Positions 2,867 to 60,378 of a stretch of DNA of 64,000 bases are shown one piece after another. The notes under the pieces are model-generated. The model ran no database searches and had not been told where the DNA came from. It saw only the letters and a program-made list of their open reading frames with translations. The stretch covers positions 56,414-120,413 of the forward strand of contig CAYWSE010000001.1 in assembly GCA_964461025.1 (NCBI GenBank), read 5' to 3'. The position numbers and the translations under genes were made by a program. This DNA comes from an uncultured Sphaerobacteraceae bacterium. GTDB lineage: Bacteria > Chloroflexota > Chloroflexia > Thermomicrobiales > UBA6265. Within the stretch, counting starts at the first letter, position 1. Every line of letters begins with the position of its first letter.

Positions 2867-3739
2867 ATGACCTCACCTCGCCTCACCATCATCGCCCCGG
2901 CCGCCGCTCATCCCGCCACCGGACTCAACGCCGCAGCGGACGCCTTCCAATCCGCCGGATTGACCGACCAGCTCGCGAACCTCGGCATCACCGTCGCCAG
3001 CACCGATCGCCCCGCCGGAACCACTCTTCCCGACCCCATTGCCGCGCTCGCAGCATCCAACGCGGCCATCGCCTCCAGCGTCGCCGCTGCTGGCAACGCA
3101 AATACGCTCCCTGTGCTCACCGGCGGCACCTGCGGTTACCTTCCAGGTATGGTCGCAGGTCTCCAGCAAACCCTCGGCCCCGGCACGACACTCGGACTCC
3201 TTTGGCTCGATGCTCATGGCGATTTCAACACGCCACGCACTACACCCTCCGGCATGCTCGGCGGTATGCCGGTTGCCGTTGTCGCCGGTCTCTGTCACGC
3301 CGAATGGCGCGAAGGCGCCGGTATGACCGCGCCCATCCCCACCAACCGGATCATGATGGTCGATGTCCGCAATCTCGACCCCGAAGAAGAGCAGCTCATC
3401 CGCGCCACTGACGTCCAGATCGTCCGCTTGCATGAATCAGACGCCCACGAGCGCATCGCCGCATTCGCCGAATCGGTCGACGCGCTCTATATCCATATCG
3501 ACGCCGACATTCTCGACGCCTCGCTCCAGCCCAATCACCCCACGGTCGAATCCGACGGACTCGATGTCGCCGAAACCCTCTCGATCGTCGAAACGGCCTG
3601 CCGTCACGGCAAGCTCGTCGCCTTCGCCGTCGTCTCGGTCAACCCCGAAGGTCCCGGCGGATCGAACTCCCTGCAAAGCGGACTCGCGCTCCTCACCGGC
3701 GGTCTCCAAATCTGGGCATCCCAAAACTTCACCGTATAA
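2867..3739 (+). CDS. arginase/agmatinase/formiminoglutamase-family ureohydrolase
   Basis: Start is ATG 2867 (MTSPRLTII). The longer 2519 ORF prefix is merely translated REP DNA. Metal-site motifs are LWLDAHGDFNTP, MMVDVRNLDPEE, YIHIDADILD and AVVSVNPE. Confidence 0.85.
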   Translation: MTSPRLTIIAPAAAHPATGLNAAADAFQSAGLTDQLANLGITVASTDRPAGTTLPDPIAALAASNAAIASSVAAAGNANTLPVLTGGTCGYLPGMVAGLQQTLGPGTTLGLLWLDAHGDFNTPRTTPSGMLGGMPVAVVAGLCHAEWREGAGMTAPIPTNRIMMVDVRNLDPEEEQLIRATDVQIVRLHESDAHERIAAFAESVDALYIHIDADILDASLQPNHPTVESDGLDVAETLSIVETACRHGKLVAFAVVSVNPEGPGGSNSLQSGLALLTGGLQIWASQNFTV

Positions 3740-3780
3740 TCCCGTTCCAGTCCTCACGCCCGATCATCCGGATCCAACCT

Positions 3781-3818
3781 CCGGACCCCGGACTGCGGAC
3801 CTCGGACTACGGACTACG
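3781..3818. repeat. degenerate heptanucleotide tandem array (NCGGACY x5; reverse orientation of the CGTAGTC family)
   Basis: The units read ccggacc ccggact gcggacc tcggact acggact acg in exact 7-nt register. Confidence 0.8.
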
Positions 3819-3832
3819 TAAAGGACACCTCG

Positions 3833-4273
3833 TTGGCCGACGATCTCGACAAGCTCTACGACTACATCGTGCGCCAGTACGTCATGAAGGACGAACTGAT
3901 CGACGTGGACCTGTCCGCCTCCGCCACCGAAGAAGGCGACGCCATCGAAAGCGAAAAGCACCAGATCGTCGTTCGCGAAACCGATCACGCCCGCCAGATG
4001 CGCGAATCATTCCGGGCTGGACTCTCCACCGCCTGGCATCTCGAACAGAATGGTTCACAAGAGCTCCGCCTCAGCGATCAGGACCCGGTCGAGAACTCCA
4101 TCGCCGATGCGCTGATCCGCTATCTCGTCAGTTTCGGTCTCGCCGGCTCCCGCACAGAAAAAGTCAGTGACGCGGCCTATACCTACTATATTTCCGTATC
4201 GTGGGACCGGTTGCAGGACATCAGCCGCAAGATTGGCGTCGATCTGCCTCAAACACTCGCCCGGGTCGCCTGA
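3833..4273 (+). CDS. hypothetical protein
   Basis: 146-aa ORF with a TTG start preceded by aaagga. Third-position GC bias matches neighbouring genes. No recognisable motif. Confidence 0.5.
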   Translation: MADDLDKLYDYIVRQYVMKDELIDVDLSASATEEGDAIESEKHQIVVRETDHARQMRESFRAGLSTAWHLEQNGSQELRLSDQDPVENSIADALIRYLVSFGLAGSRTEKVSDAAYTYYISVSWDRLQDISRKIGVDLPQTLARVA

Positions 4274-4296
4274 TCGACGATCGAAGAAAGCCAAAC

Positions 4297-5094
4297 GTGC
4301 CGCGCAAACGTCAATCCGCGCCATCGTCGAAACGCACTGCCACGCCGGCGCAATCGAACCCGGAGCGTCTTCTCGCCGCCCTGCAGATCGAAGGGCGCAA
4401 CATCGAGCTCTATCGCACCGCGCTGACTCATCGCTCCGCCGCCGGCATTGCCTTCACCGGCGACTATCCCTCCAATGAACCAAACGAGCGTCTCGAGTTT
4501 CTCGGCGATGCCCTGATCGGCGCCTATTCCGCTGACGAGCTCTATCGCCGCTTTCCGGACGAACCCGAAGGCATCCTCACCCGGCGGCGCACCGCCATCG
4601 TCCGCACCGAGCAGCTCGCCGCCTGGGCCCAGGAAATCGATCTCGATGACTACATGTATCTCGCTCCGGGCGAGCGTGCTTCCGTCAGTGGCCGCGACCG
4701 CATCCTCGCCGGCGCTTACGAAGCGTTAATCGGTGCGATCTACCTCGACCGAGGATCCCGCATCGCCAGAGCATTTTTCACCCATCAGCTTCGTCGCGAT
4801 CTCGATACGGTTCTCGCGGGGGTGGAAACATCCAACCCTAAGGGCCGCCTCCAGGAGATCACCCAGAATCTCTTCCGCCGCGCTCCCGCCTATCGCACCA
4901 TCGACGCACAAGGCCCCGCACACGCCCGAAATTTCACCGTGGAAGTCCGCTTCGACGGCGGAGTCCTCGCAACCGGCGAAGGCTCCAGCAAACGATCGGC
5001 GGAAGAAGCTGCCGCCACCGCCGCCCTCACCCTCATCGACGACCAGGGCGTCGGTGTTCTATCCCCCCGCTCCCTTCCCCGCACGCTCGATTAA
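4297..5094 (+). CDS. rnc: ribonuclease III
   Basis: RNase III signature ERLEFLGDALIG and EALIGAIYLD. C-terminal dsRBD (NPKGRLQEITQ...GEGSSKRSAEEAAA). GTG 4297 is chosen as the first in-frame start after the upstream stop. Confidence 0.9.
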   Translation: MPRKRQSAPSSKRTATPAQSNPERLLAALQIEGRNIELYRTALTHRSAAGIAFTGDYPSNEPNERLEFLGDALIGAYSADELYRRFPDEPEGILTRRRTAIVRTEQLAAWAQEIDLDDYMYLAPGERASVSGRDRILAGAYEALIGAIYLDRGSRIARAFFTHQLRRDLDTVLAGVETSNPKGRLQEITQNLFRRAPAYRTIDAQGPAHARNFTVEVRFDGGVLATGEGSSKRSAEEAAATAALTLIDDQGVGVLSPRSLPRTLD

Positions 5095-5166
5095 GAGCAA
5101 CCCGCGAACGCGTCTGCCAGCACCGAAGTCCCTCTTATCCAACGCCAAAACCATCACGAAACCGAT

Positions 5167-5196
5167 GCGTAGCCTCGCCATTTATGGCGCTTTGGC
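5167..5196. repeat. REP-like hairpin, family A variant (GTAGCCTCGCCATTTATGGCG)
   Basis: It shares the GTAGC-head and the CGCCATTTATGGCG palindrome with the copies at 16469 and 55541. Confidence 0.6.
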
Positions 5197-5379
5197 GGTC
5201 ACGTCTGCGCTGCATCTCCACTCGTTCTCGCTTTCTCCCGCGTCAACGGTCACTAAGCCCGTGATTTTCAATCGCGGGCGGATCAATTGGGCAACAGCGG
5301 CCAGCGCCAGCCCGCCGAACATGGCAGAATATGAACCCCGGCGCCGCGCCGGATTGACCAGATCAGGAGGTATGGGGAA

Positions 5380-6435
5380 GTGGCCAGACTGTTCGACCAG
5401 CTGACCATCTTCGGTGGCAATTCCAATCCTGGTCTGACCGCCGAGATTTGCGACTATCTCGGCCTCCCACAGGGCCGCGCCGAGGTCTTCAAATTCAGCA
5501 ACGACAACACCTTCGTCCGCATCGGCGAAAGCGTTCGCGATCACGACGTCTTCGTCGTCCAGTCCTTCGCTAATCCCATCAACGACTCGATCATGGAACT
5601 CCTCATCATGATCGACACCCTCAAACGAGCCTCGGCCGGCCGCATCACCGCCGTCATTCCCTATTTCGGCTACGGACGCACCGATAAGAAGGACCAGCCC
5701 CGCGTTCCGATCACCGCCCGCCTCGTCGCCAAGCTGATCGGCACATCGGGCGCCGACCGCGTCCTTTCGATCGACCTTCACGCCGGGCAGATTCAGGGCT
5801 TTTTCGACATTCCGGTCGATGAAATGACTGCCATGCCCCTCCTCTGCCGCTATTTCCAGCAACTTCGCCTCGAGCGCCCGGTGGTCGTTTCGCCCGATCT
5901 CGGCAACACCAAACGCGCCCGAAACTTCGCTGAGTTTCTCGATGCCCCCCTCGCCATCATCGAAAAACGCCGTGTCGGAAACGCCGATCGTTCCGAAATT
6001 CTCAACCTGATCGGCTCCGTCGAAGACGCGCAGGTCGTGATCATCGACGACGAAATCGACACGGCTGGATCGATCGCCCAGGCGGCGCAGGTCTGCTTCG
6101 AACAAGGCGCCGCCGAGGTCTACGCTGGTTGCACGCACGCCGTTTTCTCTGGTCCGGCCCTCGAACGCCTCGAAACCAGCCGCATTCGCGAGGTCGTCAT
6201 TTCCAACACCATCGCCCATCCACCGACTCGCCGGCTGGACAAGGTCACTGAACTTTCCGTCGCCCCCCTTCTCGCCGAAACGATCGAACGCATCCATGCC
6301 GGCGCCAGTGTCTCGGCCGCATTTCGCTCGCCCGACGCCCTACCCGACAGTTTTCAGTCCCGCTTGCCTCTCTTCTCTCGCCTCAATGGCTTCGAGAGCC
6401 CGGTCCGCGAGCCAGTCGAGCACACCGGGACCTGA
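5380..6435 (+). CDS. prs: ribose-phosphate pyrophosphokinase
   Basis: LTIFGGNSNPGLTAEI...FSNDNTFVRIGESVRDHDVFVVQS, DLHAGQIQGFF and IIDDEIDTAGS. GTG start with AGGAGG 9 nt upstream. It has a ~30-aa C-terminal extension relative to typical Prs. Confidence 0.9.
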   Translation: MARLFDQLTIFGGNSNPGLTAEICDYLGLPQGRAEVFKFSNDNTFVRIGESVRDHDVFVVQSFANPINDSIMELLIMIDTLKRASAGRITAVIPYFGYGRTDKKDQPRVPITARLVAKLIGTSGADRVLSIDLHAGQIQGFFDIPVDEMTAMPLLCRYFQQLRLERPVVVSPDLGNTKRARNFAEFLDAPLAIIEKRRVGNADRSEILNLIGSVEDAQVVIIDDEIDTAGSIAQAAQVCFEQGAAEVYAGCTHAVFSGPALERLETSRIREVVISNTIAHPPTRRLDKVTELSVAPLLAETIERIHAGASVSAAFRSPDALPDSFQSRLPLFSRLNGFESPVREPVEHTGT

Positions 6436-6468
6436 ATTCCTTCCATGTTCGAAACAAGGAGTGATCAC

Positions 6469-7659
6469 ATGCGCCTCACACGACGCCGGCTGATGCATGC
6501 TTCCGGAACGGCCCTCGCGCTCGGCGGCGCTACCTGTTTCGCCATTCCGAATGTGCGTGCCCAGACACCTGAAGCGCAACCTACATCGGCGAACGACGCT
6601 CTTCTCGACATCGCGAAGGCGATTCCTCTCTCCAGCATCTCCACCAATGCCGAAGAGGGGAGGGAGCTTCTTACCTTTGCCGATTTCGCCTGGCGACTGG
6701 AAAGCGTCGGCGCCGATCTCACTTCGCTCTCGGACGATGCCGCAGTCGACATCTGGGTCGACGCCACGCTCCCCCTTCCACCCGGCGACCTCCTCATGGC
6801 ATCGTTCCGAACCGACGATGCGCTCGGACTGTTTGGTTGGCAGACTCTCGACATCGAACGGTGCGGGAGCGTTATGTCGAGTTCGAACACATTGACAGTC
6901 TTGCAAGGTCGCTTCCAGCCAGACACCCTCGACGCCGCATGGCGGGCGCAAGGCTACGAAATGCTCGATATCAATGGCGTGCCGGTCGCATCCCTGTCCG
7001 CCGAAGCGGAAGTCGATCTCGCCTCGGAAATCGGCTTGCTTGCCCTGAGCAAAGCCAACAACGTCGCGCTGATCGACGACACGCTCCTCATCTACGCATC
7101 GACCCTCGCCGGTCTCTCCGCGATGATCGATGCCTACAACGGCGCCACCGAGTCACTCGGCGCCTATCCGCTCTTGCAGACAACGCTCGGCTCACTGCCC
7201 GATCGGCTCTCCGGCGCAATCGTCTTGCCGCCTGGCGCATTTGTCGCCGCCAATCTTCCCTTTGAAATGGGAGAAAACTCGGTCGAAATCACCGAGCCGC
7301 CCGAACCAGGCCCAATTCCACTTCTTGGTGTGGTTGGCTTCGTATCCGGCGACTCTATCCCGGCCACCGACCTGACATCCACAAGCGACGAACCTGTCCC
7401 ATCTGGCGCGCTCGCCGTCTCCTCCCGTCATTTCCTCACCGCCGCAGAAGCCGAGCTCGCCGCCCGTCGCTCCCTCCTGACCCTCGAAACGCAGCACTCC
7501 AGTCTCTCCCAACAGCCATTCACCGAAATCTTCGCCGGTTGGCACATCGACATCGATCGCGCGGAAGACAATGTCGTCACCCAAATCGAGCTCTACGCGA
7601 ACGAGGGCATCTGGGCGCAGATGATCTATGCTCGCGATGCGCTCTTCCTCTATGGATAG
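6469..7659 (+). CDS. secreted hypothetical protein (Tat signal)
   Basis: MRLTRRRLMHASGTALALGGATCFAIPNVRAQ carries a twin-arginine motif, an h-region and an AxA-like cleavage site. Confidence 0.6.
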   Translation: MRLTRRRLMHASGTALALGGATCFAIPNVRAQTPEAQPTSANDALLDIAKAIPLSSISTNAEEGRELLTFADFAWRLESVGADLTSLSDDAAVDIWVDATLPLPPGDLLMASFRTDDALGLFGWQTLDIERCGSVMSSSNTLTVLQGRFQPDTLDAAWRAQGYEMLDINGVPVASLSAEAEVDLASEIGLLALSKANNVALIDDTLLIYASTLAGLSAMIDAYNGATESLGAYPLLQTTLGSLPDRLSGAIVLPPGAFVAANLPFEMGENSVEITEPPEPGPIPLLGVVGFVSGDSIPATDLTSTSDEPVPSGALAVSSRHFLTAAEAELAARRSLLTLETQHSSLSQQPFTEIFAGWHIDIDRAEDNVVTQIELYANEGIWAQMIYARDALFLYG

Positions 7660-7755
7660 ACCAATACCCCCGGTTTGACGCTAAGGGCCGCATACCGTAC
7701 GGTTGCCCCGCCATCTCGGCAAACGCGAACGAATCTGACAAGGGACTGAATCGAC

Positions 7756-8346
7756 ATGGTGCTCTCGGACGGCGACATCATTGCGGCGCTGGAAAGCGGG
7801 CGTATTCGCATCGATCCAGCCCCCGATCTCGCCGTTCAGCTCGGCTCGGTTTCGGTCGACTTTCGTCTCGGCACCACCTTCATGGTCTTCGAACACAGCA
7901 GGTACAGCTACATCGATCCCCGTCATCCACAATCGATCGGCGACGCCATGCGGACGATCGAAGTCGCTGAAGACGAACCCTTCATTATGCAACCTGGCGA
8001 CTTCGCCCTCGCCTCGACCATCGAGACGCTGGAACTCCCGGACGATCTCCTCGGTCGCCTTGAGGGTCGCTCCTCGATCGCCCGTCTTGGCATCACCGTG
8101 CATTCGACTGCCGCGGTTTTCGAGCCCGGCTGGATCGGCACCGCAACCATGGAGCTCAGCAATCTCGGCCGAATGGCCGTGGCGCTCTATCCCGGCATGC
8201 GCATTTGCGCGTTTTCCTTCGAAACCGTCAGTTCGCCGGTGCTCACTCCCTACAGAAAAAAGGTCAACAACAAATACGCCGGTCAGCTGACCCCACGTGC
8301 AAGCCTCCTGTCCGAAGAAAACCGGCTCGCCGGCAAGAACGTATGA
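7756..8346 (+). CDS. dcd: dCTP deaminase
   Basis: MVLSDGDIIAALESGRIRIDP, GRLEGRSSIARLGITVH and FEPGWIGTATMELSN. Confidence 0.9.
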   Translation: MVLSDGDIIAALESGRIRIDPAPDLAVQLGSVSVDFRLGTTFMVFEHSRYSYIDPRHPQSIGDAMRTIEVAEDEPFIMQPGDFALASTIETLELPDDLLGRLEGRSSIARLGITVHSTAAVFEPGWIGTATMELSNLGRMAVALYPGMRICAFSFETVSSPVLTPYRKKVNNKYAGQLTPRASLLSEENRLAGKNV

Positions 8347-8349
8347 GAG

Positions 8350-8365
8350 TGTTTCACGTGAAACA
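8350..8365. promoter_or_regulatory. perfect 16-bp palindrome TGTTTCACGTGAAACA (candidate protein-binding site)
   Basis: It is exactly self-complementary and lies 4 nt after the dcd stop. A near-identical copy lies at 8928-8943. Confidence 0.4.
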
Positions 8366-8476
8366 TGGCGATCGAGTCCGTGATTGGACAGTAGGAATCA
8401 CGAGCCGCATAATCGGCGATAGCAAACCGGACCGAATGCACTCCGGACAACACAACCCGGGAAGGTATGGAAAAAC

Positions 8477-8863
8477 GTGCCAGTCGAGACTCTGACCACT
8501 GTTCGCGACCGTATGCTCCCCATGATGGAGCTCACCGCCCGGGAATACGCCCACCGAATGCCGGCGGGTTATCCGAAACTGATCGACGAGCCAAACCGCG
8601 GTACCTTCGGCCTCCTCCTCGATCCAAGTCACGCCCTCCACATCGTCTCCGACGGTACAAATCTCTATGCCGAGATGACAGCCCGCTCATCCCGCACCGA
8701 CGCCCGAGCGAGCGCCGGTCGCGAAAAGTACTCCGGCATGCCATTCAACGACCGTCGCCTGATCTCCGAGGATGTTTCCGATCAGGAGTTGCGCAATCTC
8801 CTCGGTGAGTTGGTTTCCCGATACAACATGCTTCCGCGCATCATCCACATCACCGACACCTGA
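8477..8863 (+). CDS. hypothetical protein
   Basis: 128-aa ORF with coding-like GC3, followed by a strong terminator. No recognisable motif. Confidence 0.55.
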   Translation: MPVETLTTVRDRMLPMMELTAREYAHRMPAGYPKLIDEPNRGTFGLLLDPSHALHIVSDGTNLYAEMTARSSRTDARASAGREKYSGMPFNDRRLISEDVSDQELRNLLGELVSRYNMLPRIIHITDT

Positions 8864-8886
8864 GTTCTGCGACCCTCAATAGGACG

Positions 8887-8924
8887 GAAAAAGAGGAGTT
8901 CCGAATCGGAACTCCTCTTTTCTT
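8887..8924. terminator. bidirectional rho-independent terminator
   Basis: 11-bp stem GAGGAGTTCCG-AAT-CGGAACTCCTC. It is flanked by an A-run upstream and TTTTCTT downstream. It sits between convergent genes 8477..8863(+) and ndk(-). Confidence 0.75.
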
Positions 8925-8927
8925 GCA

Positions 8928-8943
8928 TGTTTCACGTGAAACG
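8928..8943. promoter_or_regulatory. second copy of the TGTTTCACGTGAAAC palindrome (15/16 match)
   Basis: The 14-bp core GTTTCACGTGAAAC is perfect at 8929-8942. Confidence 0.4.
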
Positions 8944-8969
8944 CGCAGCCAGCGCGCCTGGAGCGGGGA

Positions 8970-9449
8970 TCAGTCGTCGAGAATCCACCGATCGATATCG
9001 CGCGTATAGCTCGCCAGCGGTGTGGCGCCGAAAAAGATCCCAACCTCGCGCTCGGCGCTGGTCGCGCTATCCGACGCGTGAATCAGGTTTCTTCCTACGG
9101 TAAGACCATAATCCGCACGGATCGTCCCCGGCGCAGCCTCAGCTGGTCGCGTCGAACCGACCGTCGAACGCGTCACCGCAATCGCATCCGGACCCTCCAG
9201 CACCAGCGTTACGGAAGGCCCCGAGGTGATATAGCTCACCAGCGACCCATAAAACCCCTTGCCTTCATGCTCGGCATAGTGCTTCTTGGCCACCGCTTCC
9301 TCGATCGTGCCGATATTCAGCCCGACAATCCGCAAGCCGCGCTGCTCGAGCCGCTTGATAATTTCCCCGATCAATCCCCGCTGCACACCATCGGGTTTGA
9401 TGATCACGAGCGTTCGCTGCACATCCGCCACGGAGTATCCCTTCCTCAT
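8970..9449 (-). CDS. ndk: nucleoside diphosphate kinase
   Basis: RTLVIIKPDGVQRGLIGEII, GPSVTLVLEG and GRNLIHASDS (active-site His context). Confidence 0.92.
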   Translation of the reverse strand: MRKGYSVADVQRTLVIIKPDGVQRGLIGEIIKRLEQRGLRIVGLNIGTIEEAVAKKHYAEHEGKGFYGSLVSYITSGPSVTLVLEGPDAIAVTRSTVGSTRPAEAAPGTIRADYGLTVGRNLIHASDSATSAEREVGIFFGATPLASYTRDIDRWILDD

Positions 9450-9493
9450 CTACGGCCTGCTTCCAGTTGCAGACCTGCTATACGAACCCAATT

Positions 9494-9685
9494 CTACGTG
9501 CCCGGCTCTTCAGGCAACACCGCCCCTTTGGCTGCCGCCTTCGCTGCTTTCGCTGCTTCCTGCTCTCGCCGGTACTTCTTGTTGCGCTTCAGGGCCTGTT
9601 CCAGTGTCCACAATGTCACGCCAGTGGCGATGATCAGTGGAATCACGATCACCAGCACCAGCAACAACCATTCCGTACCAGACAT
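9494..9685 (-). CDS. small membrane protein (hypothetical)
   Basis: MSGTEWLLLVLVIVIPLIIATGVTLW forms a single TM helix, followed by a Lys/Ala-rich tail. The start is uncertain (9685 or 9697). Confidence 0.4.
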   Translation of the reverse strand: MSGTEWLLLVLVIVIPLIIATGVTLWTLEQALKRNKKYRREQEAAKAAKAAAKGAVLPEEPGT

Positions 9686-9786
9686 CGATACTCCCACACA
9701 CCGTCACTGCATCCGCTCGCTGCCAGGCAACCAGCGGCGACTCAAGCTACCATTTGCGTTGGCACTTCGTCGACAGGATTCTCGCG

Positions 9787-10089
9787 ATGTCCACACCCCA
9801 GCCGCAACCACGACCGCTCCTCATCGAAGAAGACGAATCGCTGATGCCGTCTCGCGGCTCGGTGATCGTCTTTCTCTCGATGTTCATCGCCACCACTGCG
9901 CTCATCGTCGTGGTGCTTGTCTGGGATCATTCCGCCCGGGCCGGACTCTTCCTCGGCGTCACCTTCTGGACCTGGCTCCTCGCCGCCATCTTCCTCGCTT
10001 TCGGCCCCGTCACCCTCGCCTGGCGCCTCCATCGCACCCGCTCCAAACGCAGCGACCTCGTCCGCTCCGAATGGATGCTTCCAGATTGA
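9787..10089 (+). CDS. membrane protein (hypothetical)
   Basis: ATG 9787. Two predicted TM helices (VIVFLSMFIATTALIVVVLVW, LFLGVTFWTWLLAAIFLAFGPV). Confidence 0.45.
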   Translation: MSTPQPQPRPLLIEEDESLMPSRGSVIVFLSMFIATTALIVVVLVWDHSARAGLFLGVTFWTWLLAAIFLAFGPVTLAWRLHRTRSKRSDLVRSEWMLPD

Positions 10090-10240
10090 CTCAGCGAGTC
10101 ATATTGACATAACTCTTTCTGCGTCGCTGATTCCGGGGGTATATCGCATAGTGGATAGCGCATCGGTTGGGGAAACGCCCACCATCCGCCACCGAATCTC
10201 CACTATCCACCCCGGCTCCCCATTTCCCGACCAACGGAAA

Positions 10241-10369
10241 TGTAGGCTCCGGCGCTCTGCCGGAGCAATCGACCGGAGGTCGATAACTGCGGCCACCTGC
10301 AACCAAGGTTGTGCTGGCGATGGAGTTGGTCGTGGTTTATGGCCCTCCGGCAGAGCGCCGGGGGTTACA
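10241..10369. mobile_element. REPIN/MITE-like element copy 1 (129 bp, ~25-bp terminal inverted repeats)
   Basis: The termini are TGTAGGCTCCGGCGCTCTGCCGGAG ... CTCCGGCAGAGCGCCGGGGGTTACA. The body is near-identical to 51479-51620. Confidence 0.7.
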
Positions 10370-10652
10370 TTCGCGGAGCCCCGGCCATTAGGGACGAACT
10401 AGCGGTGCGCCTAGAATAGTGTGTGACTCGGGAATCATCCGACCATCCACTATTTACCATCTACTATCTACCGCGGCACAAATGCCGAGCCCCCTGTTGC
10501 AGCAGGGGGCTCCGCGGGGGTCTTTCGCAACGATTGGCGAGGGAAGGGGGAAGCCGCTCGCTGCGTTGCTTCCATCCTACAGTTGCCCTCCAGTCAAGAT
10601 GCGTGCTGAATGGATAGAGCATTGGGTCCGTTCGGACCTGCCTTCCTCTATG

Positions 10653-11354
10653 TCAGCGAGTACCTCCGCCTTCATCGCTCGTGGCCGTCTTCCGCCGGTC
10701 GGCTTCATACGACCGCATCATCGCCAGCAACACCTGATCGATGAAGTCATCGATACCAATGAACAACCGCGCCGCCCGTCGCGCCGGCAGATTTTCCTCT
10801 TCGATCACACCCAGCACCGCCCGCACCGTCGGATACCGAAAATAGAGAAACGCTTCGATCGTTTCTCCCGGTCCCAGGCCTGCCTGTCCACCCGACCGGC
10901 CATAGTAGTCACCGATTTCCCGGCCCTCTGTCAGCAACTGGGCGCGCTCCCGCTGATGCCCCGTCGTCGCCGCATACCGAATCGCCAGATCGACCAGTCT
11001 TCTCCCCAGTCGCCGGTGTTCTTCCTGCTTTTCCGCTCCAAACGACTGGTACCACTGACGGCTGCGCGCTTCGTTCAGATAGTCGTCTTCATATGCCGAC
11101 AGCGAACGGTCCGTCAGTCGCTGCCGGCTCACTCTCGATTTCTGCGGTTTCTTGGCATCCCCGGCCACCAGCGAGCGCAAATCTTCTTCCAGGTAACGCC
11201 GGTGACCGCCCGGCGTCAAAAAGGCCGGTACGCGTCCCTCATCGGTCCACCGTCGCAATGTCGACTGATCGACGCCCAGAAACGCGCAGGCATCGCGGAT
11301 CGTCATCCACCGAGGTCCAGAGCCGGTCGATCCTCCCTGATCGCGTTCGCTCAT
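10653..11354 (-). CDS. HTH DNA-binding protein (excisionase/MerR-type N-terminus) with C-terminal sensor-like domain
   Basis: WMTIRDACAFLGVDQSTLRRWTDEGRVPAFLTPGGHRRY is a typical excisionase-family HTH. I could not assign the C-terminal ~170 aa. Confidence 0.65.
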   Translation of the reverse strand: MSERDQGGSTGSGPRWMTIRDACAFLGVDQSTLRRWTDEGRVPAFLTPGGHRRYLEEDLRSLVAGDAKKPQKSRVSRQRLTDRSLSAYEDDYLNEARSRQWYQSFGAEKQEEHRRLGRRLVDLAIRYAATTGHQRERAQLLTEGREIGDYYGRSGGQAGLGPGETIEAFLYFRYPTVRAVLGVIEEENLPARRAARLFIGIDDFIDQVLLAMMRSYEADRRKTATSDEGGGTR

Positions 11355-11416
11355 CCTCTCGCTCCGTCCAGGCCACGGCGATTTTCGCTCTCTCCATAGC
11401 CCATCGATCGGTCTCC

Positions 11417-12859
11417 CTATCGCGATGTCTCCAGAGCCTCGCGAATCGCGATCAGCTGCGAGCGCAACACCGCGTCCTCGAGCAGCTGCGCTTCGATCTT
11501 CTCGATGCCATGCATTACCGTGGTGTGATCTCGCCCCCCGAGCGCCCGGCCGATATCCGCCAGCGACGACGCCGTTCCCTCCCGAATCATGAACATCGCG
11601 ATCTGCCGTGGAATAACGATTTCGCGCGACCTGTTCCGGCCGCTCATCGCCACCACATCGACCTGAAAATACGACGCCACCGCCTTGATGATCTCCTCAG
11701 GCGTCAGATCATCCCGCCGCATCCCTGCCTTGCCGCTCGACAATGCTTCGATAGCCAGGGAAAGAGTGATCGACCGGTTCCCCACCCGGGAGTAGGCGAT
11801 CACCCGGTTCAATGCTCCCTCCAGCTCACGCGTGTTCGTCTTGTCCCGCTGCGCGATGTACTCGATCGCGTCATCCGGCACCCGCGCACCCAGCTCCTCC
11901 GCCTTCGTGCGCAGAATCGCCATGCGCATTTCGAAATCGGGCGGTTGCACATCCGCCGTCAGGCCACCCTCGAACCGCGACCGTAGCCTGTCTTCCAGAC
12001 CCGCAATCGCGTGTGGCGGCCGGTCGCTCGAAATCACCACCTGCCGGCCACTCTGATGCAGCGTGTTGAATGTGTGGAAGAACTCCTCCTGCGTGCTGTC
12101 CTTCCCGCCGATGAACTGAATGTCATCGATCATCAACAGATCGATCGTCCGGTATCTGGCCCGGAAATCGTCCATGCGCTGCGCCCGCAATGACTCGATC
12201 AGATCGTTGGTGAACTTCTCCGACGAGACATAACAAATGCGAAGATCGGGTTTGTGCTCGAGCGCCCGGTGCCCGATCGCATGCAGCAGATGGGTTTTGC
12301 CCAGTCCCACTCCGCCATAGATGTAAAAAGGGTTGTATTGCTCGCCCGGATGCTCGGCCACCGCCAGCGACGCCGCGTGCGCGAACATGTTTGACTTGCC
12401 AACCACGTACGTCTCGTACACATACCGTTGATTCAGACCCTGGAACGGATTCGATGCGAGCTCGAGTTGCTGCGACGCCGCCAGGGGAGTGGGCTGACGC
12501 CGCACCGTCGTATCGATCTTCCGTCGCCCCACCGACACAGCACCGTTCGGGGCTGACTTCACTGGTTTCTCTTCGGTCGAAACAACCGTCTGGTTCGCCA
12601 ATTGATCGGCAGCGCCCACGGTGAACTGCACGGTCACCGGCCGTCCCACAATGTCGGAAAGTACCCGCTGGATTTCCGTGGCGTAACGAGACTCCAGCGT
12701 CGACGCGCCGAACGTGTTGGGCGCCGAAATCGTTGCGACATCATTCGCGAATGCGACCAGCGATGTCGGACGCAGCCAGTTTTCAAAAGCGTTTTTACTC
12801 AACCGCACCTGCATGTCACCAAGCACGGCTTGCCACAACTGTTTGGCCTGAAGTTGCAC
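11417..12859 (-). CDS. dnaA: chromosomal replication initiator protein DnaA
   Basis: NPFYIYGGVGLGKTHLLHAIG (Walker A), DDIQFIGGK, and C-terminal domain IV (ADIGRALGGRDHTTVMHGIEKI). Confidence 0.96.
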   Translation of the reverse strand: MQLQAKQLWQAVLGDMQVRLSKNAFENWLRPTSLVAFANDVATISAPNTFGASTLESRYATEIQRVLSDIVGRPVTVQFTVGAADQLANQTVVSTEEKPVKSAPNGAVSVGRRKIDTTVRRQPTPLAASQQLELASNPFQGLNQRYVYETYVVGKSNMFAHAASLAVAEHPGEQYNPFYIYGGVGLGKTHLLHAIGHRALEHKPDLRICYVSSEKFTNDLIESLRAQRMDDFRARYRTIDLLMIDDIQFIGGKDSTQEEFFHTFNTLHQSGRQVVISSDRPPHAIAGLEDRLRSRFEGGLTADVQPPDFEMRMAILRTKAEELGARVPDDAIEYIAQRDKTNTRELEGALNRVIAYSRVGNRSITLSLAIEALSSGKAGMRRDDLTPEEIIKAVASYFQVDVVAMSGRNRSREIVIPRQIAMFMIREGTASSLADIGRALGGRDHTTVMHGIEKIEAQLLEDAVLRSQLIAIREALETSR

Positions 12860-13094
12860 GGGAGTCAGACCTTTTTTGGGTTACCACTTTGCCAGCCAAA
12901 GTGGATGCGGGGTCCCTGACCTTAGGTCTGTCACTCTACCACGCCAGACCCCGCTTTTGGTGAGACCAAAGGTGCAATTCCTCCAGTCTCAGTCTGGCGC
13001 ATCACCGGTCCCACCCCGATCCGGGAATCTGTCACAAAACCGTTGTTTCCTGTCACTGCACATGATAGAGTACCGGCGCGACAGGTTCACCACA

Positions 13095-13300
13095 TCATCT
13101 TGATGTGATGACGCAAGTGGGAATCCGGTGAAATGCCGGAGCTGCCCCGCAACGGTAACGAGGAACGACGCCGTCATTCGCACCGGGTCAGAACCCGGCA
13201 AGCGACGGTTGGTAGGAATCCCGGCTCTCCCGCCGGTCCGCCTCGCAGCCCGAACACCGGCCTGACGCTCGCGCCGCGAGGGCGCGATGTGAACCCGGGC
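13095..13300 (+). promoter_or_regulatory. cobalamin (B12) riboswitch in the nrdA leader
   Basis: The core GGGAATCCGGTGAAATGCCGGAGCTGCCCCGCAACGGTAA matches the conserved GGGAA..GGTGAAA..CC..GCCCCGCAAC.GTAA segment. A B12-box-like GCACCGGG...CCCGGCAAGCG follows. Boundaries are approximate. Confidence 0.78.
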
Positions 13301-13535
13301 TTCCGCGGGGAGGCCGGCGGGAATTGGTCCGGCGCACCCCCGGATTGCTTCTCTACCTTCCCCGGAAATATCGGCGCACACACGAGGGTGTGAGGGTTCC
13401 GCTCTGACGCTTCCCGCTGCGCGGCAGTCGAAGCGCTTTGACAGAACATGCCTCACCCCTCGACCTCGCAGTCGAACGCATCAGACACCCGCGTCGCGGC
13501 AATGTCATTGAAGTGGGGAGGTGGGAGGCGATTCC

Positions 13536-16385
13536 ATGGAAATCCGCGAACTCGGTACCGGCGACGCCGTGTCCGGAACACTCGACGAATCACCATTCGT
13601 GCTGAAAGCCGGAAATGTCACCAAGCGCGACGGACGCTCCGTCTCGCCCGACATCACCCGCATCGCCAACGCGATCGAAATGGCCTTTCGAGCCGAAGTC
13701 GGTGTGCCCTTTCCTGACCCGCTGCCCTCCGCCATTCACGACCGCACGCTGTCCATCACCAATCAGGTCGTCGAATCGCTGAACTGCCAGTTCGATTCCG
13801 CCCAACCACTTCATGTCGAAACGATTCAGGACGAAGTCGAACAGCAACTGATGGCTGCGGGCGCTTTCGGCGTTGCCAAACGCTACATTCTCTATCGACA
13901 GGCCCGCTCCCAGCTCCGCCAGGAAGCCGCGATCCGCGTCATCGACGATCGTGGCCAGGAATTGCAGCTGCACCGAGCCGTTATCCGCTCCTGGGTCGAT
14001 GAGGTCTGCGCCGGTGTCGACGAAGCCGTCTCGGCCCCCGCCATCGTCGAAGATGTCCTGAACGGCATCTATCCCGGTATCGCCCTCGCCGAGGTGCAGC
14101 AGCTCGTTCTTTACGCTGCCCGCACCCGCATCGAGCAGGACCCCGCCTGGTCGAGCGTCGCCGCTCGCGCTTTGTTGAGCACCCTCTACGCCGAAGTCTT
14201 CGGCCGCCGCGTCGCCATCGCCGACGCTCCCGGTCTCTATGCCGGCGCCTTTTCGTTCTATCTCCGCGACGCCGTCGCCGCCGAGCTCCTCAGCGAAGAG
14301 CTTCTCTCCTACGATCTCGATCTACTCGGCGCCGCGCTGCATCCGGAGCGCGATCTCGATTTCGCCTACCTCGGACTCCAGACCCTTTACGACCGCTACC
14401 TGATCCGCAACGGCGACCGGCGCATCGAGCTCCCCCAGATGCTCTGGATGCGCGTCGCCATGGGATTGGCCATGAATGAAGACGACGCCAACCAGCGCGC
14501 AATCGAGTTCTACGAGCTCCTCTCATCCCTTCGCTTCTGTTCTTCGACGCCGACGCTTTTCAACGCCGGCACCCGTCATCCGCAACTCTCCTCCTGTTAC
14601 CTCACGACCATCGGCGACGACCTCGACCAGATCTTCTCCGGCTTGCGTGACAACGCCCTCCTCTCCAAGTGGAGTGGGGGACTCGGCAACGACTGGACCC
14701 GCGTTCGCGCTCTCGGTAGTGGCATCAAGGGCACCAATGGCCGCAGCCAGGGCGTCGTTCCCTTCCTGAAGGTCGCCAACGACGCCGCGGTCGCGGTCAA
14801 CCAGGGCGGCAAACGCAAGGGCGCGGTCTGCGCCTATCTCGAGACCTGGCATCTCGATATCGAAGAGTTCCTCGAACTGCGCAAGAACACCGGCGACGAC
14901 CGCCGCCGCACCCACGATATGAACACCGCCAACTGGGTGCCCGATCTCTTTATGCAACGAGTCAAGGAGGACGGACCGTGGACCCTCTTCAGCCCCGACG
15001 ACGTCCCCGACCTGCACGATCTCTATGGCAAGGCCTTCGCCGCCCGCTACCAGGCCTGCGAAGCCGCAGCGGCTCGCGGTGAAATCCGTCTCAGCCGAAC
15101 GGTGCGCGCCGTCGATCTCTGGCGCAAGATGCTCACCGCTCTCTTCGAAACCGGACACCCCTGGATCACCTTCAAGGACCCCTCGAACGTCCGCACCCCG
15201 CAGGATCACACCGGCGTCGTCCACAGCTCGAATCTCTGCACCGAGATCCTTCTCAACACCAGCGACGACGAAGTTGCCGTCTGCAATCTCGGTTCGGTCA
15301 ATCTCGCTGCCCACATCGTTGATGGCCGCCTCGATCTCGAATCGCTGCACACCACCATCCGCACCGCCGTGCGCATGCTCGACAACGTCATCGACATCAA
15401 CTTCTACCCGATCCCGGAAGCGCGCAACGCCAACCTTCGCCACCGGCCAGTCGGACTTGGCCTCATGGGCTTCCAGGACACCCTTTACGCGCTTGGGTAT
15501 TCCTATGCCTCGGAGGAAGCAGTTGCCTTTGCCGGCCAAAGCATGGAAGCGATTGCCTGGTCCGCACTCCTCGCCTCATCCGAGCTCGCTGCCGAGCGTG
15601 GCGCCTATGAGTCCTATCGCGAATCGAAATGGGACCGCGGCCTTCTCCCTCAGGACACCATCCAGCTCCTCAGCGACGAGCGCGGCTCGCCAATCGACGT
15701 TCCCATCGAACCAACTCTCGATTGGGAGGTTGTGCGCCGTTCGATCCAGCGACATGGCATGCGCAACAGCAACGTCATGGCCATCGCCCCCACCGCGACG
15801 ATTTCCAACATCACCGGCGTCAGTCAGTCGATCGAACCCGCCTTCTCCAATCTCTACGTCAAGAGCAATCTCTCCGGCGAGTTCACCGTCGTCAACTAAT
15901 TCCTCGTCCGCGATTTGAAGGAGCGCGGTCTCTGGGACGCCGAGATGCTCGACGATCTCAAGCATCACGACGGCTCCCTTCAGGAGATCGACCGCATCCC
16001 GCAAGACCTCCGCGACCGCTACCTCACTGCCTTCGAAATCGACTCATCCTGGCTGCTCGCCGCCGCGGCCCGCCGCCAGGTCTGGATCGACATGGGCCAG
16101 TCGCTCAACCTCTATTCCGCCGGCGCCAGTGGTCGCAAGCTCAACGACATGTACCTCTCCGCCTGGGAACAGGGGCTGAAAACCACCTACTACCTGCGCA
16201 GCAACGGCGCGACCCAGGCCGAGAAGTCGACATTGGACATCAACGCCCGCGGTCTTCAACCCCGCTGGATGAAGTCCCGCAGCGCCTCCGCCGACGTCGT
16301 CATCGACCGCGAACCGACCATCGACGACTACCCCATCGGCGCCTCCTGCTCCCTCGACGGCAGCGACTGCGAGGCCTGCCAATGA
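13536..16385 (+). pseudogene. nrdA: class Ia ribonucleotide reductase alpha subunit interrupted by one in-frame TAA (15897-15899)
   Basis: ATP-cone-like N-terminus (VTKRDGRSVSPDITRIANAIE) and catalytic core (SSCYLTT, SNLCTEI, AIAPTATISNI). The sequence reads ...GEFTVVN-TAA-FLVRDLKERGLWD... and continues in the same frame to TTYYLRS and the C-terminal Cys-rich tail CSLDGSDCEAC. ATG 13536 has GGAGG 7 nt upstream. Confidence 0.88.
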
Positions 16386-16468
16386 ACGCTCTCAGCCGTA
16401 CCGGCAGACCTCCGCGCCCGCCCCATGCCTTCGTACCGGCGGACCTCCGCGTCCGCCTACCATCATCC

Positions 16469-16492
16469 CGTAGCGTCGCCATAAATGGCGAC
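16469..16492. repeat. REP-like hairpin, family A (CGTAGCGTCGCCATAAATGGCGAC)
   Basis: The same sequence occurs three times inside the RAYT gene at 55472-55639. This copy lies in the nrdA-nrdB spacer. Confidence 0.8.
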
Positions 16493-16533
16493 TTCCCACC
16501 GAAACGATGCTCTATCAACGAGGAATCCAATCA

Positions 16534-20255: not shown

Positions 20256-20338
20256 ACCGAGAGTCGTAGATCGTGGTTCGCAGTCCGAGGTCCGGAGTTC
20301 GTGGGTCATGAGTCGTGGGCCGGTGTTCGTTGCTCGCG
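20248..20338. repeat. degenerate heptanucleotide tandem array, 13 units (consensus GNYCGNR)
   Basis: The triplet TCG/CCG recurs every 7 nt: atTCGta gaCCGag agTCGta gaTCGtg gtTCGca gtCCGag gtCCGga gtTCGtg ggTCAtg agTCGtg ggCCGgt gtTCGtt gcTCGcg. The array begins 5 nt before the metE stop. Confidence 0.8.
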
Positions 20339-20347
20339 ACGGTCGGA

Positions 20348-20445
20348 TGTAGCTCCCGGCGCTCTGCCGGGGGATGGCCCGCAGGGCCATAGACTTCCAG
20401 GGGCATAGCGACCCATGCGAGGCCACCAAGGTCGTAGGTGGCATC
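20348..20445. repeat. degenerate relative of the REPIN-like element plus ATGGCCC-GCA-GGGCCAT palindrome
   Basis: TGTAGCTCCCGGCGCTCTGCCGGG matches the left terminus of the 10241 and 51479 elements. The remainder has diverged. Confidence 0.5.
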
Positions 20446-20466
20446 TTGTTATCGCCCTGAGGTTGT

Positions 20467-20515
20467 CGTAGTTAGTAATCCGTAGTCAACAGATCACCAT
20501 CCACCATCCACCAAA
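20467..20515. repeat. composite heptamer array (CGTAGTY-type then CACCATC-type units)
   Basis: The units read cgtagtt agtaatc cgtagtc aacagat caccatc caccatc caccaaa. The array at 28685-28747 has the same architecture. Confidence 0.75.
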
Positions 20516-20521
20516 AATACA

Positions 20522-20548
20522 TTGACCCGGCCATGATGGCCGGGTCAA
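20522..20548 (-). terminator. hairpin, probable terminator for the TerC-family gene
   Basis: 11-bp stem TTGACCCGGCC-ATGAT-GGCCGGGTCAA. On the minus strand it is followed by ATGTATTTTT. Confidence 0.45.
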
Positions 20549-20674
20549 TGCGGGAAGGGGAGGGTGGAGCGTGTGCGGCGCTCCACTGGGCTTGGGAGAG
20601 AGATCAGTATGTACTGATGCTCTCGACCCTATATACGCCGCCCCTTTCAGTTTGGTTTTATGACTGGATTTGCG

Positions 20675-21370: not shown

Positions 21371-21377
21371 AGTTACT

Positions 21378-21398
21378 TAGGCAATAGGCAATAGGCAG
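21378..21398. repeat. heptamer array TAGGCAA x3
   Basis: The units read taggcaa taggcaa taggcag. The array lies 7 nt upstream of the TerC start codon and is the inverse complement of the 21485-21554 array. Confidence 0.85.
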
Positions 21399-21484
21399 AA
21401 GTAATCGATATCTGTCAGCTGCCAACTGGATCGACATCTCCCACCTCCGGACCTCAGTCTGGGATGACCAGTACCCGGGTACTT

Positions 21485-24389: not shown

Positions 24390-24412
24390 CACCCAGTCCA
24401 TAATCCCCCTCT

Positions 24413-24891
24413 ATGGACGACCTCCTCAACCACCCCCGCGACAAGCGCCGCCTCCCCGACTGTGCATACGCGGTCCCCGGCTCCGCCTGGCACATCACCA
24501 TCGGCACACACGATCCAGGCTCCCGCCCGCTCTCCGAACCTAATCTCGCGCTTCACCTGGGCAGTTCACTCGCCGAATCCGCACGCTATCACAGCGCCAT
24601 CCTGCACCTGTGGTGCGTCATGCCCACGCACGCCCACGTCATCATCGAAGTCCGCGAGATCGATCTCCGCACCCTCGTCAAATCAATGAAAATGTGGTCA
24701 ACGCGTGTCTGGTGGAAACTCGGTGGGGAGGGGTACTCTGGCACAAGAGCTTCTACGATCACGGCATCCGGGGACAACGCGACTTCGACGCCACGATCCG
24801 CTACATCCTCGAAAATCCCGTCAAAGAGGGACTCGTCGAAACATGGGAAGATTTTCCCGCTCTGGGTGGCGCGATCCTGTCAGGTGAGTAA
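24413..24891 (+). pseudogene. IS200-like/REP-associated tyrosine transposase (RAYT-like), -1 frameshift in a G-run near 24730-24733
   Basis: The N-terminal frame carries the HUH motif (CVMPTHAHVIIEV). The C-terminal part continues in another frame (VLWHKSFYDHGIRGQRDFDATIRYILENPVKEGLV) with the catalytic-Tyr context. The junction lies in GGTGGGGAGGGG. Confidence 0.72.
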
Positions 24892-24909
24892 CCGCAGCAA
24901 GCGGCAGCT

Positions 24910-25051
24910 ATGGCCCTGCGGGGCCATCCATCGACACGGAGGTCGATGGCTACGGAGAAAACGCGCGTACGCATCGACCTCCGCCGTCTCACCGTACGCA
25001 TCGACCTCCGCCGCCTGACCGTACGCATCGACCTCCGTGTCGATGCCCTAC
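24910..25051. repeat. REP-like array, family B, downstream flank of the RAYT pseudogene
   Basis: ATGGCCC-TGCG-GGGCCAT palindrome at 24910-24927. Inverted-orientation hairpin at 24928-24953. Two half-sites. A full hairpin at 25021-25051. Confidence 0.85.
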
Positions 25052-25060
25052 GCCTGGGTT

Positions 25061-51478: not shown

Positions 51479-51620
51479 TGTAGGCTCCGGCGCTCTGCCG
51501 GAGCAATCGACCGGAGGTCGATAACTGCGGCCACCTGCAGCCGCGGTTGTACTGTCGATGGAGGTGGTCGTGGATTAAGGCCCTCCTGGCCATTCCTCCG
51601 GCAGAGAGCCGGAGGCTACA
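51479..51620. mobile_element. REPIN/MITE-like element copy 2 (142 bp)
   Basis: The termini are TGTAGGCTCCGGCGCTCTGCCGGAG ... CTCCGGCAGAGAGCCGGAGGCTACA. The body is collinear with copy 1 apart from a few substitutions and a ~13-nt insertion. Confidence 0.7.
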
Positions 51621-55169: not shown

Positions 55170-55907
55170 ATGCGCCAGAATCGGGAGTCGCTCCGGTACA
55201 GGGGATACGACTACACACATCCGAGCGCGTATGCGTTCACGGTTGTTGTCCGTGATCGTGCATGTCGTCTTGGACGAATACATGAGATGGTGTTCAAGGC
55301 AACTCTCGCAGGAGCAACCGTGCTCAACGTATGGGAGTCGCTGCCGAAGAGATTTCCACGCATCCTGCTGGATGCGTTCGTAGTCATGCCCAACCATATC
55401 CATGGGATTGTGTTTCTGGGAGGCACACCGATCGATAATCTGGACGATCTCGTCGACACAACGACCCCATCCGTAGCGTCGCCATTTGTGGCCATCGGCG
55501 CATCTGAGCAGAACGAATCCCAGACTCCACGAACACCGTCCGTAGCGTCGCCATTTATGGCGACTGATGCGTTGGCGATGAACGTTCCTCGAACCTTAGC
55601 GCCGTCTGGCGAGACAGTCGCCATAAATGGCGACGCTACAAAATCGGCTGCGGTACGCGGGCGACGACCTCCAGTTCCACCGGTCCGTGATCAGGCCATG
55701 CCAGCGCTCGGTGAGATCGTTCGTTCGTTGAAGGCCGCGTCAACGACAAGGATTCGCAAGGAAATCGATCCTCAGTTTGCATGGCAGGAAGGGTACTGGG
55801 ACCGCATCATCCGCAATGATGCCGAACTGGAGCGGTATCGGGCATACATCGAAAACAATCCTGCGCGTTGGGAAGAAGACAGGGAATACCTAAAGGGGGA
55901 TTGGTAG
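55170..55907 (+). CDS. REP-associated tyrosine transposase (RAYT, IS200-like) with extended linker
   Basis: YAFTVVVRDRACRLG N-terminus. HUH motif VVMPNHIHGIVFL. Tyr motif FAWQEGYWDRIIRNDAELERYRAYIENNP. An ~85-aa linker contains three family A REP sequences. Confidence 0.82.
   Translation: MRQNRESLRYRGYDYTHPSAYAFTVVVRDRACRLGRIHEMVFKATLAGATVLNVWESLPKRFPRILLDAFVVMPNHIHGIVFLGGTPIDNLDDLVDTTTPSVASPFVAIGASEQNESQTPRTPSVASPFMATDALAMNVPRTLAPSGETVAINGDATKSAAVRGRRPPVPPVRDQAMPALGEIVRSLKAASTTRIRKEIDPQFAWQEGYWDRIIRNDAELERYRAYIENNPARWEEDREYLKGDW
55472..55639. repeat. three family A REP units inside the RAYT coding sequence
   Basis: CGTAGCGTCGCCATTTGTGGCC at 55472-55493. CGTAGCGTCGCCATTTATGGCGAC at 55541-55564. 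The inverted copy GTCGCCATAAATGGCGACGCTAC at 55617-55639. Confidence 0.85.
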
Positions 55908-60369: not shown

Positions 60370-60378
60370 GCTAACTCC

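Follow-up and report, generated by a model that had tools for sequence, protein, structure and literature searches.

The stretch of DNA here analysed (64,000 nucleotides, hereafter the window) represents 64 kb out of a 137-kb contig (CAYWSE010000001.1) from an uncultured Sphaerobacteraceae bacterium, whose nearest named relatives are Thermomicrobiales. At positions 10241-10369 and 51479-51620 it carries two copies of an intergenic element with inverted ends, and a single related unit at 20348-20392. As read from the sequence, the truly repeated module, here called family C, is a unit of ~45 nt, and not the 130-140-bp element into which two of these units are assembled. All three sites (3/3) are extragenic, each with the ends of two convergent genes around it. 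Copy 1 has on one side a small open reading frame (ORF, +) whose end is at 10089 and on the other a MerR-like gene (-) whose end is at 10653; copy 2 follows the stop codon of a 2-hydroxyacid dehydrogenase gene (+) by 41 nt and that of a HEAT-like gene (-) by 29 nt; the singlet is located between metE (+) and terC (-). The features are listed below with their scores on a unit model whose training set includes all five family-C units in the window, their bit scores being accordingly not independent.

10241..10369, no strand assigned: copy 1, a decayed version of the doublet of copy 2
10241..10286, plus strand: left unit of copy 1, subtype C1 (75.7 bits, training sequence)
10320..10369, minus strand: right unit of copy 1, subtype C2, degenerate (51.8 bits, training sequence)
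20348..20392, plus strand: single complete C2 unit (64.9 bits, training sequence)
51479..51620, no strand assigned: copy 2, the better-preserved doublet of ~142 bp, a head-out inverted C1/C2 pair with a ~50-nt spacer
51479..51524, plus strand: left unit of copy 2, subtype C1 (77.1 bits, training sequence)
51575..51620, minus strand: right unit of copy 2, subtype C2 (66.4 bits, training sequence)

Beyond these five units, the model detected no further family-C copies in the window.

Anatomy of the family-C unit and its doublets

Each unit reads, in order, (A)YGTAG, hairpin 1, one or two bases, and hairpin 2. Hairpin 1 is a perfect 8-bp stem closed by a 5-nt loop (GCTCCGGC-GCTCT-GCCGGAGC), with the core CCGGC-N5-GCCGG, and in hairpin 2 a 7-bp stem encloses 3 loop nucleotides. 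Units fall into two subtypes: the closing pair of hairpin 1 is G:C in C1, with ATCGACC/GGTCGAT as hairpin 2, and it is C:G in C2, with ATGGCCC/GGGCCAT, the differences between them being compensatory changes. The doublet (129-142 bp) is made up of one C1 and one C2 unit in inverted orientation, with their GTAG heads outward and a spacer of ~50 nt between them. The inverted termini of ~25 nt proposed in a preliminary description of the locus are confirmed by a 24-nt sequence, GTAGGCTCCGGCGCTCTGCCGGAG, which is found four times at up to 3 mismatches, arranged as two inverted pairs, with 0.00 occurrences expected from shuffled sequences. That each terminus is a GTAG-headed hairpin also holds, but its stem is the 8-bp GCTCCGGC/GCCGGAGC with the loop GCTCT, instead of the CTCCGG-N7-CCGGAG then envisaged.

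In the left unit of copy 2, GTAG occupies positions 51480-51483, hairpin 1 positions 51484-51504 (GCTCCGGC gctct GCCGGAGC) and hairpin 2 positions 51506-51522 (ATCGACC gga GGTCGAT), while its right unit reads GTAG CCTCCGGC tctct GCCGGAGG followed by ATGGCC-aggag-GGCCTT, with one mismatch in hairpin 2. The left unit of copy 1 shows the same arrangement, its GTAG spanning positions 10242-10245 and its hairpins 1 and 2 positions 10246-10266 and 10268-10284, respectively. Its right unit has a GTAA head (CTAC changed to TTAC) and keeps hairpin 1, hairpin 2 being gone, and one stem pair of this copy is weakened. Both copies are collinear, as previously described, with 93% identity over 109 ungapped nt; they also share the spacer, are 41 kb apart and have unrelated flanks, and they are the only two copies in the window of the doublet including its spacer. 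Their difference in length had been attributed to a ~13-nt insertion in copy 2. Since copy 2, a doublet from another genome (ACE_CHL14, see below) and the singlets all retain the hairpin concerned, the event is instead a 13-nt deletion in copy 1, located between two CCTCC direct repeats, that takes out hairpin 2 of the right-hand unit. Similarly, the sequence at 20348, formerly regarded as a third, degenerate copy in which nothing but the left terminus was shared, turns out to be a complete ~45-nt unit with both hairpins present (GTAG CTCCCGGC gctct GCCGGGGG, then ATGGCCC gca GGGCCAT).

Pairing statistics were obtained on an alignment of 12 units from the window and other genomes. Paired cells amount to 87.7%, versus 24-45% when the partners are slid, and both-sided base-pair changes are observed at four pairs. 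Hairpin 1 is particularly well kept, with 94.7% of its cells paired and a perfect 8-bp stem with a 5-nt loop in every intact unit. Of the 12 aligned units, 11 have the GTAG head, and the remaining one, the right arm of copy 1, which is decayed, has GTAA. The strict form of hairpin 2 is found four times in the window (0 expected), always beside GTAG units. A free-standing hairpin 2 was considered as an insertion target, as described in Thermomicrobium roseum, and was discarded, its strict form never being free in the window. On the other hand, the internal covariation formerly pointed out between both copies (caacc-aa-ggttg versus cagcc-gc-ggttg) reduces to one substitution between two 93%-identical sequences, would require an impossible 2-nt loop, and is statistically weightless.

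Regarding assembly, a short-read Logan contig of the same organism (L052, covering window 10449-12473) ends ~80 nt from copy 1, which would fit assemblies breaking close to a repeat; another one (L051, window 19378-21414) continues unbroken through the singlet at 20348-20392.

Related genomes, transposase genes and site occupancy

A scan of ~186,000 species-representative genomes with the pattern GTAR-N3-CCGGCKCTCTGCCGG returned 50 loci. After reading every one of them, true units were recognised only in ACE_CHL14, a Thermomicrobiales metagenome-assembled genome (GCA_019637585.1), the 46 loci outside it being chance or coding matches (four Chloroflexota loci share a conserved coding motif). 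Two metagenome scans were also made: the strict two-hairpin pattern gave 0 matches, and the looser GTAG-N3-CCGGCGCTCTGCCGG pattern gave 21, every one of them by chance or in coding sequence, with no true unit among them. In ACE_CHL14, the exact-pattern scan together with reading revealed at least eight units, including C1 singlets and units next to another GTAG family, as well as a 141-bp C2+C1 doublet that is 77% identical to copy 2 and whose spacer cannot be aligned with that of the window doublets.

A profile of the clade of RAYT-B, one of the two window genes described below, collected 3,266 proteins, many of them named RayT, several from Thermomicrobiales and two from ACE_CHL14. RAYT scores given here (a RAYT being a tyrosine transposase associated with REPs, or repetitive extragenic palindromes) are those on the NCBIfam model NF047646, named for these enzymes, with a cut-off of 80 bits. 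The ACE_CHL14 protein P0069 reaches 99.3 bits on it, and 23.5 bits on the IS200 model NF033573 (cut-off 55). Its gene has five GTAG-N3-CCGGC-N5-GCCGG units in its flanks, forming a head-out doublet on either side, and the start of one doublet falls inside the stop codon. Head, spacing, stem core and loop length are common to these flanking units and to family C, and one of them scores 23.6 bits (E 1e-4) on the unit model. Two further ACE_CHL14 sequences, namely a 92-bp hybrid doublet formed by a C1 unit and a RAYT-type unit (L034 ~4229-4322) and a C1 unit with a RAYT-type loop (CCCGT; L034 7677-7721), bridge, at the level of sequence, the loop forms of family C and of the RAYT-type units. A further RAYT homologue, coming from an unrelated run (P0003, L075), has in its flanks GTAG GGTCGGGC gctct GCCCGACC plus GTGGCC cgca GGCCAC, a unit with the family-C layout and loop (30.8 bits, E 1e-6). 

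Another RAYT of ACE_CHL14, P0074, is flanked by tandem arrays of a separate repeat family, CGTAGTTCGGGCACCTGTGGCCCGAC, and the RAYTs of this genome are therefore family-specific. The P0074 REPtron, as a RAYT gene with its own repeats on both sides is called (L083 1040-1370 and 1980-2125; JAHBVL010000006.1), displays five tandem CGTAGTTCGGGCACCTGTGGCCCGAC copies with a period of ~60 nt before the gene, and inverted and direct copies after it; the CGTAGTTCGGGCACCTGTGGCCCGAC unit is also seen beside family-C units in L015 and L034.

The presence in the window of more families of GTAG-headed hairpins, already indicated by the preliminary description, was corroborated, and two of them (A and B) are associated with RAYT-like genes:

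24413..24891, plus strand: RAYT-B, the gene of a REP-associated tyrosine transposase, frameshifted within a G-run near 24718-24730
24907..24953, minus strand: family-B unit directly downstream of RAYT-B (17.8 bits on the unit model, E 0.006; outside the training set)
55170..55907, plus strand: RAYT-A, the other RAYT-like gene, an ORF of 245 aa whose HUH motif is PNHIHGIV and whose tyrosine motif is GYWDRIIRN

RAYT-B is flanked on both sides by family-B GTAG/GTAC hairpin clusters (24232-24394 and 24907-25056), the hairpins of these arrays reading GTACGCATCGAC ctccgt GTCGATGC. Its frameshift reflects either a pseudogene or a sequencing error, and the frameshift-corrected product scores 83.8 bits on NF047646. 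The unit at 24907-24953 (GTAG CCATCGAC ctccgt GTCGATGG, then ATGGCCC cgca GGGCCAT) matches C2 in its two-hairpin layout and in the stem of hairpin 2, and, in addition, hairpin 2 of C1 resembles hairpin 1 of family B. RAYT-A contains three family-A GTAG repeats between its HUH and tyrosine motifs (55471-55496, 55540-55565 and, inverted, 55610-55635), across which the reading frame stays open. It matches NF047646 in two stretches with 49 bits, under the cut-off, and possibly represents a transposase gene into which its own repeats have inserted. Due to this repeat-derived insert, RAYT-A is not alignable with the RAYT-B clade. A tblastn search of the window with RAYT-A and RAYT-B for a third RAYT returned only those two genes. 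GTAG hairpins are also dispersed in intergenic DNA of the window, at 2706-2832 for family B and at 5167-5192 and 16468-16493 for family A.

Occupancy of the family-C sites was then compared in relatives. The contigs L076 and L077, from a Logan assembly of a relative closer than ACE_CHL14, show 79-86% nucleotide identity and are syntenic with window 3266-12966. At the site of copy 1 they have 120 nt, versus 390 nt in the window, and no unit; moreover, no GTAG hairpins appear across their syntenic 14.6 kb. At the copy 2 site, on the contrary, the same genome has one unit of the C2 type, single and inverted, which scores 35.1 bits (E 6e-8) and is located downstream of the orthologous dehydrogenase gene and at the position of the right arm of copy 2. 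This site is occupied in both lineages and was therefore occupied before their split, and its occupancy in two genomes with 80% identity at this point suggests, from the sequence comparison, a long persistence. In L079-L081 (74% identical), the gene content downstream of the copy 2 site differs, which makes them uninformative about an empty site. Direct repeats of 4 nt or more, among which target-site duplications were sought as the preliminary description had proposed, are absent from the flanks of the six doublets considered.

Some other features of these regions deserve description. The gene dnaA occupies window 11417-12859 (-), as identified from the Pfam domains of its L076 orthologue. 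A replication origin at copy 1, ~1 kb from dnaA and with TATCCAC-like motifs nearby, was considered and rejected, as DnaA boxes are not enriched (3 versus 5.2 expected). Plus-strand GC skew is strongly negative between 2 and 38 kb (about -0.2) and close to zero past 40 kb, with no sign change at dnaA. Positions 1-80 of L077, upstream of dnaA, are 98.75% identical to window 20512-20591, downstream of terC, the remaining syntenic DNA being ~86% identical; by sequence, this suggests either an insertion or rearrangement of the 7.5-kb segment 12966-20512, which extends from a cobalamin riboswitch up to metE, or a conserved or mobile nature of the 80-nt piece. Finally, tandem heptamers (ATTGCCT/ATTGCCC, CCCTTTG) are found in intergenic DNA of the window (21470-21567 and 60366-60435) and likewise in ACE_CHL14 (L031 ~860-900; L034 ~4380, ~7555 and ~7800).

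Nature of the element and alternative explanations

These observations make it very probable that the element is a REP doublet (REPIN), that is, an HH heterodimer of GTAG-tagged REPs, belonging to Thermomicrobiales and to the type of repeats that domesticated tyrosine transposases copy. Supporting this are the facts that (i) its termini are autonomous GTAG units that also appear as singlets and in hybrid doublets, (ii) in a genome that carries the family, units with its core lie on both sides of a RAYT gene, and (iii) the two RAYT-like genes of the window have GTAG repeats of their own, the six doublets considered lack target duplications, and site occupancy varies among relatives. REPs and REPINs are an already known class; the family here described is new, and it does not constitute a new class of element. 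Among the explanations initially offered (REPIN, MITE, that is, miniature inverted-repeat transposable element, or structured RNA), REPIN is thus the one retained.

Several points weigh against this assignment and have to be considered with it: (i) the window is devoid of a RAYT adjoining family-C units, the cognate RAYT not being seen there; (ii) the units flanking P0069 have CCTGT, CCCGT or CCAGT loops and no hairpin 2, and none of the RAYTs found has in its flanks family-C units in their exact form, with both the loop GCTCT and hairpin 2; (iii) known units are few (five in these 64 kb, at least eight in ACE_CHL14 and one in a third genome), classical REP families typically having hundreds; (iv) the copy 1 site in L076/L077, although free of the unit, is not a clean empty site, since the surrounding intergenic DNA has diverged too, so that it documents absence only; and (v) no transposition event has been observed.

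Folding is the aspect in which the element could be mistaken for a functional RNA. Copies 1 and 2 fold far better than shuffled sequences on both strands (z = -7 to -9), and the REPIN-type inverted pairs with long-hairpin folds, namely both copies, L031 636-776 and L034 4230-4321, give z = -4.5 to -9.3. Were the element a structured non-coding RNA (a small RNA gene, or else an element acting in cis from 3' untranslated regions), the multi-stem fold would be what is selected and the termini would be its closing helix. Such an RNA would be in agreement with the very stable predicted folds (z = -7.5 to -9.3), with the preservation of both small hairpins by compensatory changes, with the location of the three sites directly downstream of converging genes, and with the better folding, in three of three full doublets, of the strand that has C1 at its 5' end (for copy 1, -83 versus -69 kcal/mol as RNA; as DNA, -53.8 versus -43.7 and -54.9 versus -52.2). 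Nonetheless, both strands fold strongly and, to within some kcal/mol, symmetrically, as expected of a DNA palindrome, and compensatory changes in palindromes are equally expected from RAYT recognition of single-stranded DNA, the only covariation claimed within the element being the single substitution mentioned above. The spacer, moreover, cannot be aligned between window and ACE_CHL14, and singlets and short doublets exist without most of the supposed RNA. Rfam gives no match close to a gathering score: at permissive E-values the best hit of copy 2 is VA RNA, with 26.3 bits versus a gathering score of 62, and at the gathering threshold the whole window yields only a cobalamin riboswitch located elsewhere (RF00174, 77 bits; 13066-13279 (+), upstream of a 792-aa ORF at 13521-15899). 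Promoter or terminator consensus sequences were likewise not found around copies 1 and 2. Altogether, an RNA gene or selected RNA element is considered very unlikely. Because each of the three sites is enclosed by the ends of convergent genes, transcription probably runs into the hairpins and includes them in 3' untranslated regions, where a secondary or passive effect at the RNA level is possible.

Equally slight is the probability that these are immobile host hairpins, for instance protein-binding or transcript-end ones, which would resemble REPs without depending on a RAYT and would have been duplicated by recombination or gene conversion. The low number of known copies, the persistence suggested by the site occupied in two 80%-identical genomes, and the cognate RAYT not being seen in the window are compatible with it. 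However, it does not account well for two 93%-identical copies 41 kb apart with unrelated flanks, for the absence of copy 1 at the syntenic site of the relative, or for the family core on both sides of the P0069 gene, and the conserved GTAG head is a known RAYT recognition motif (PMC3333891). Finally, a classical MITE, understood as a deletion derivative of a DDE insertion sequence that is mobilised via its 25-bp terminal inverted repeats and makes target duplications, is highly improbable: ~25-bp inverted termini, a length of 129-142 bp, intergenic location and two near-identical copies would suit it, but the termini are autonomous GTAG hairpin units also found alone or in hybrid pairs, none of the six doublets has a target duplication of 4 nt or more, the only transposase genes tied to such units are Y1/HUH RAYTs, and no insertion sequence with shared termini was seen in the window or in the examined loci.

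Proposed mechanism, known systems and significance

For a REPIN of this kind, a family-specific RAYT (HUH/Y1) would bind the folded single-stranded unit via GTAG and the hairpin, cut between C and T, either within the linker or in the CTAC of the inverted partner, and excise and reinsert the doublet as single-stranded DNA without target duplications. The family-C RAYT of the window genome would then lie outside the window. Under this scheme, copy 2 is a plausible RAYT substrate, while copy 1 is probably an immobile, decaying relic, since one of its arms has lost GTAG/CTAC and one hairpin.

The scheme is modelled on Escherichia coli, in which TnpAREP binds in vitro the folded single-stranded REP, needs GTAG, cuts between C and T in the inverted REP or the linker, and makes no target duplications, and a second group of enzymes recognises perfect palindromes (Ton-Hoang 2012, PMC3333891; Corneloup 2021, PMC8266576). 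Family C shares with the E. coli REPs and bacterial interspersed mosaic elements (BIMEs) of these reports the GTAG 5' of the palindrome and the REP/inverted REP pairs with linker, and RAYT-A, RAYT-B and P0069 share the HUH and Y motifs of TnpAREP. Unlike the E. coli REPs, which are imperfect and have an essential bulge, family C has a perfect 8-bp stem, as in the second TnpAREP group (S. maltophilia, Marinomonas), and its unit carries a second hairpin that the E. coli REP does not have. Similarities also extend to the subterminal hairpins of IS200/IS605, regarding the single-stranded hairpin for a Y1 HUH transposase, the tetranucleotide at its foot and the lack of target duplications. Nevertheless, no transposase gene is contained in the family-C element, whose two ends are inverted versions of one another, and by their model scores the linked proteins are RAYTs (NF047646, 99 bits) and not IS200 transposases (NF033573, 23.5 bits, cut-off 55).

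Relative to REPINs and RAYTs (Bertels and Rainey 2011, PMC3116915, PMC3337134), coincidences include the inverted REPs with a spacer forming one long hairpin, the doublet repeated with its spacer within the genome (two copies, 93% identical), singlets that resemble remnants, a single-copy RAYT flanked by repeats, and an orthologous site that suggests vertical persistence. Differences are that known REPIN populations comprise tens to hundreds per genome, mostly in Proteobacteria, only a handful being known here, and that the two arms of the family-C doublet are of different subtypes, the long hairpin consequently having internal branches.

GTAG REPs are already known in Chloroflexi, namely the family GTAG-23 of T. 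roseum (Di Nocera, De Gregorio and Rocco 2013, PMC3733652), which, by its description, is among the systems closest to family C. According to that study, GTAG REPs form HH heterodimers, with 20-100-bp spacers and small terminal stem-loops, as well as hybrid dimers; they favour convergent or unidirectional intergenic sites and have family-specific REPtrons (PMC3733652). Family C agrees with them in the GTAG tag at one end of the stem-loop, in the existence of singlets, head-out dimers with 20-100 bp between the units, heterodimers and hybrid dimers, in the small stem-loops at both spacer ends, in the coexistence of several families per genome, in the bias towards convergent sites, and in occurring in Thermomicrobia. 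It departs from T. roseum in two aspects: REPs there are reported as sizeable clusters at a small number of loci, whereas family-C units are dispersed, and they are inserted there in CCGSSCC(n3,4)GGSSCGG palindromes that also occur free, whereas hairpin 2 is here only found attached to units.

The sole mildly unusual feature of family C is a modular hairpin 2 that is common to a neighbouring REP family. In this respect, ATGGCCC..GGGCCAT is seen on two different hairpins 1, that of C2 and that of the family-B unit beside RAYT-B, and the RAYT-flanking units of ACE_CHL14 are without hairpin 2. From this, a bipartite REP in which hairpin 2 is a separate, exchangeable module can be conceived, although we regard it as rather doubtful. 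If true, hairpin 2 would be a second recognition module or a host-function one (e.g., transcript-end or protein-binding) shuffled between REP families of different RAYTs, and it would represent a new variant of REP architecture and a handle on REP diversification and retention in Thermomicrobiales.

As for annotation, family-C hairpins should not be called small RNAs or terminators. The two-hairpin unit could, in turn, inform how RAYTs recognise perfect-palindrome REPs. In general, the very probable assignment of family C to REPs extends the REP/REPIN-RAYT systems, mostly studied in Proteobacteria, to an uncultured Thermomicrobiales lineage with several co-resident families and family-specific RAYTs.

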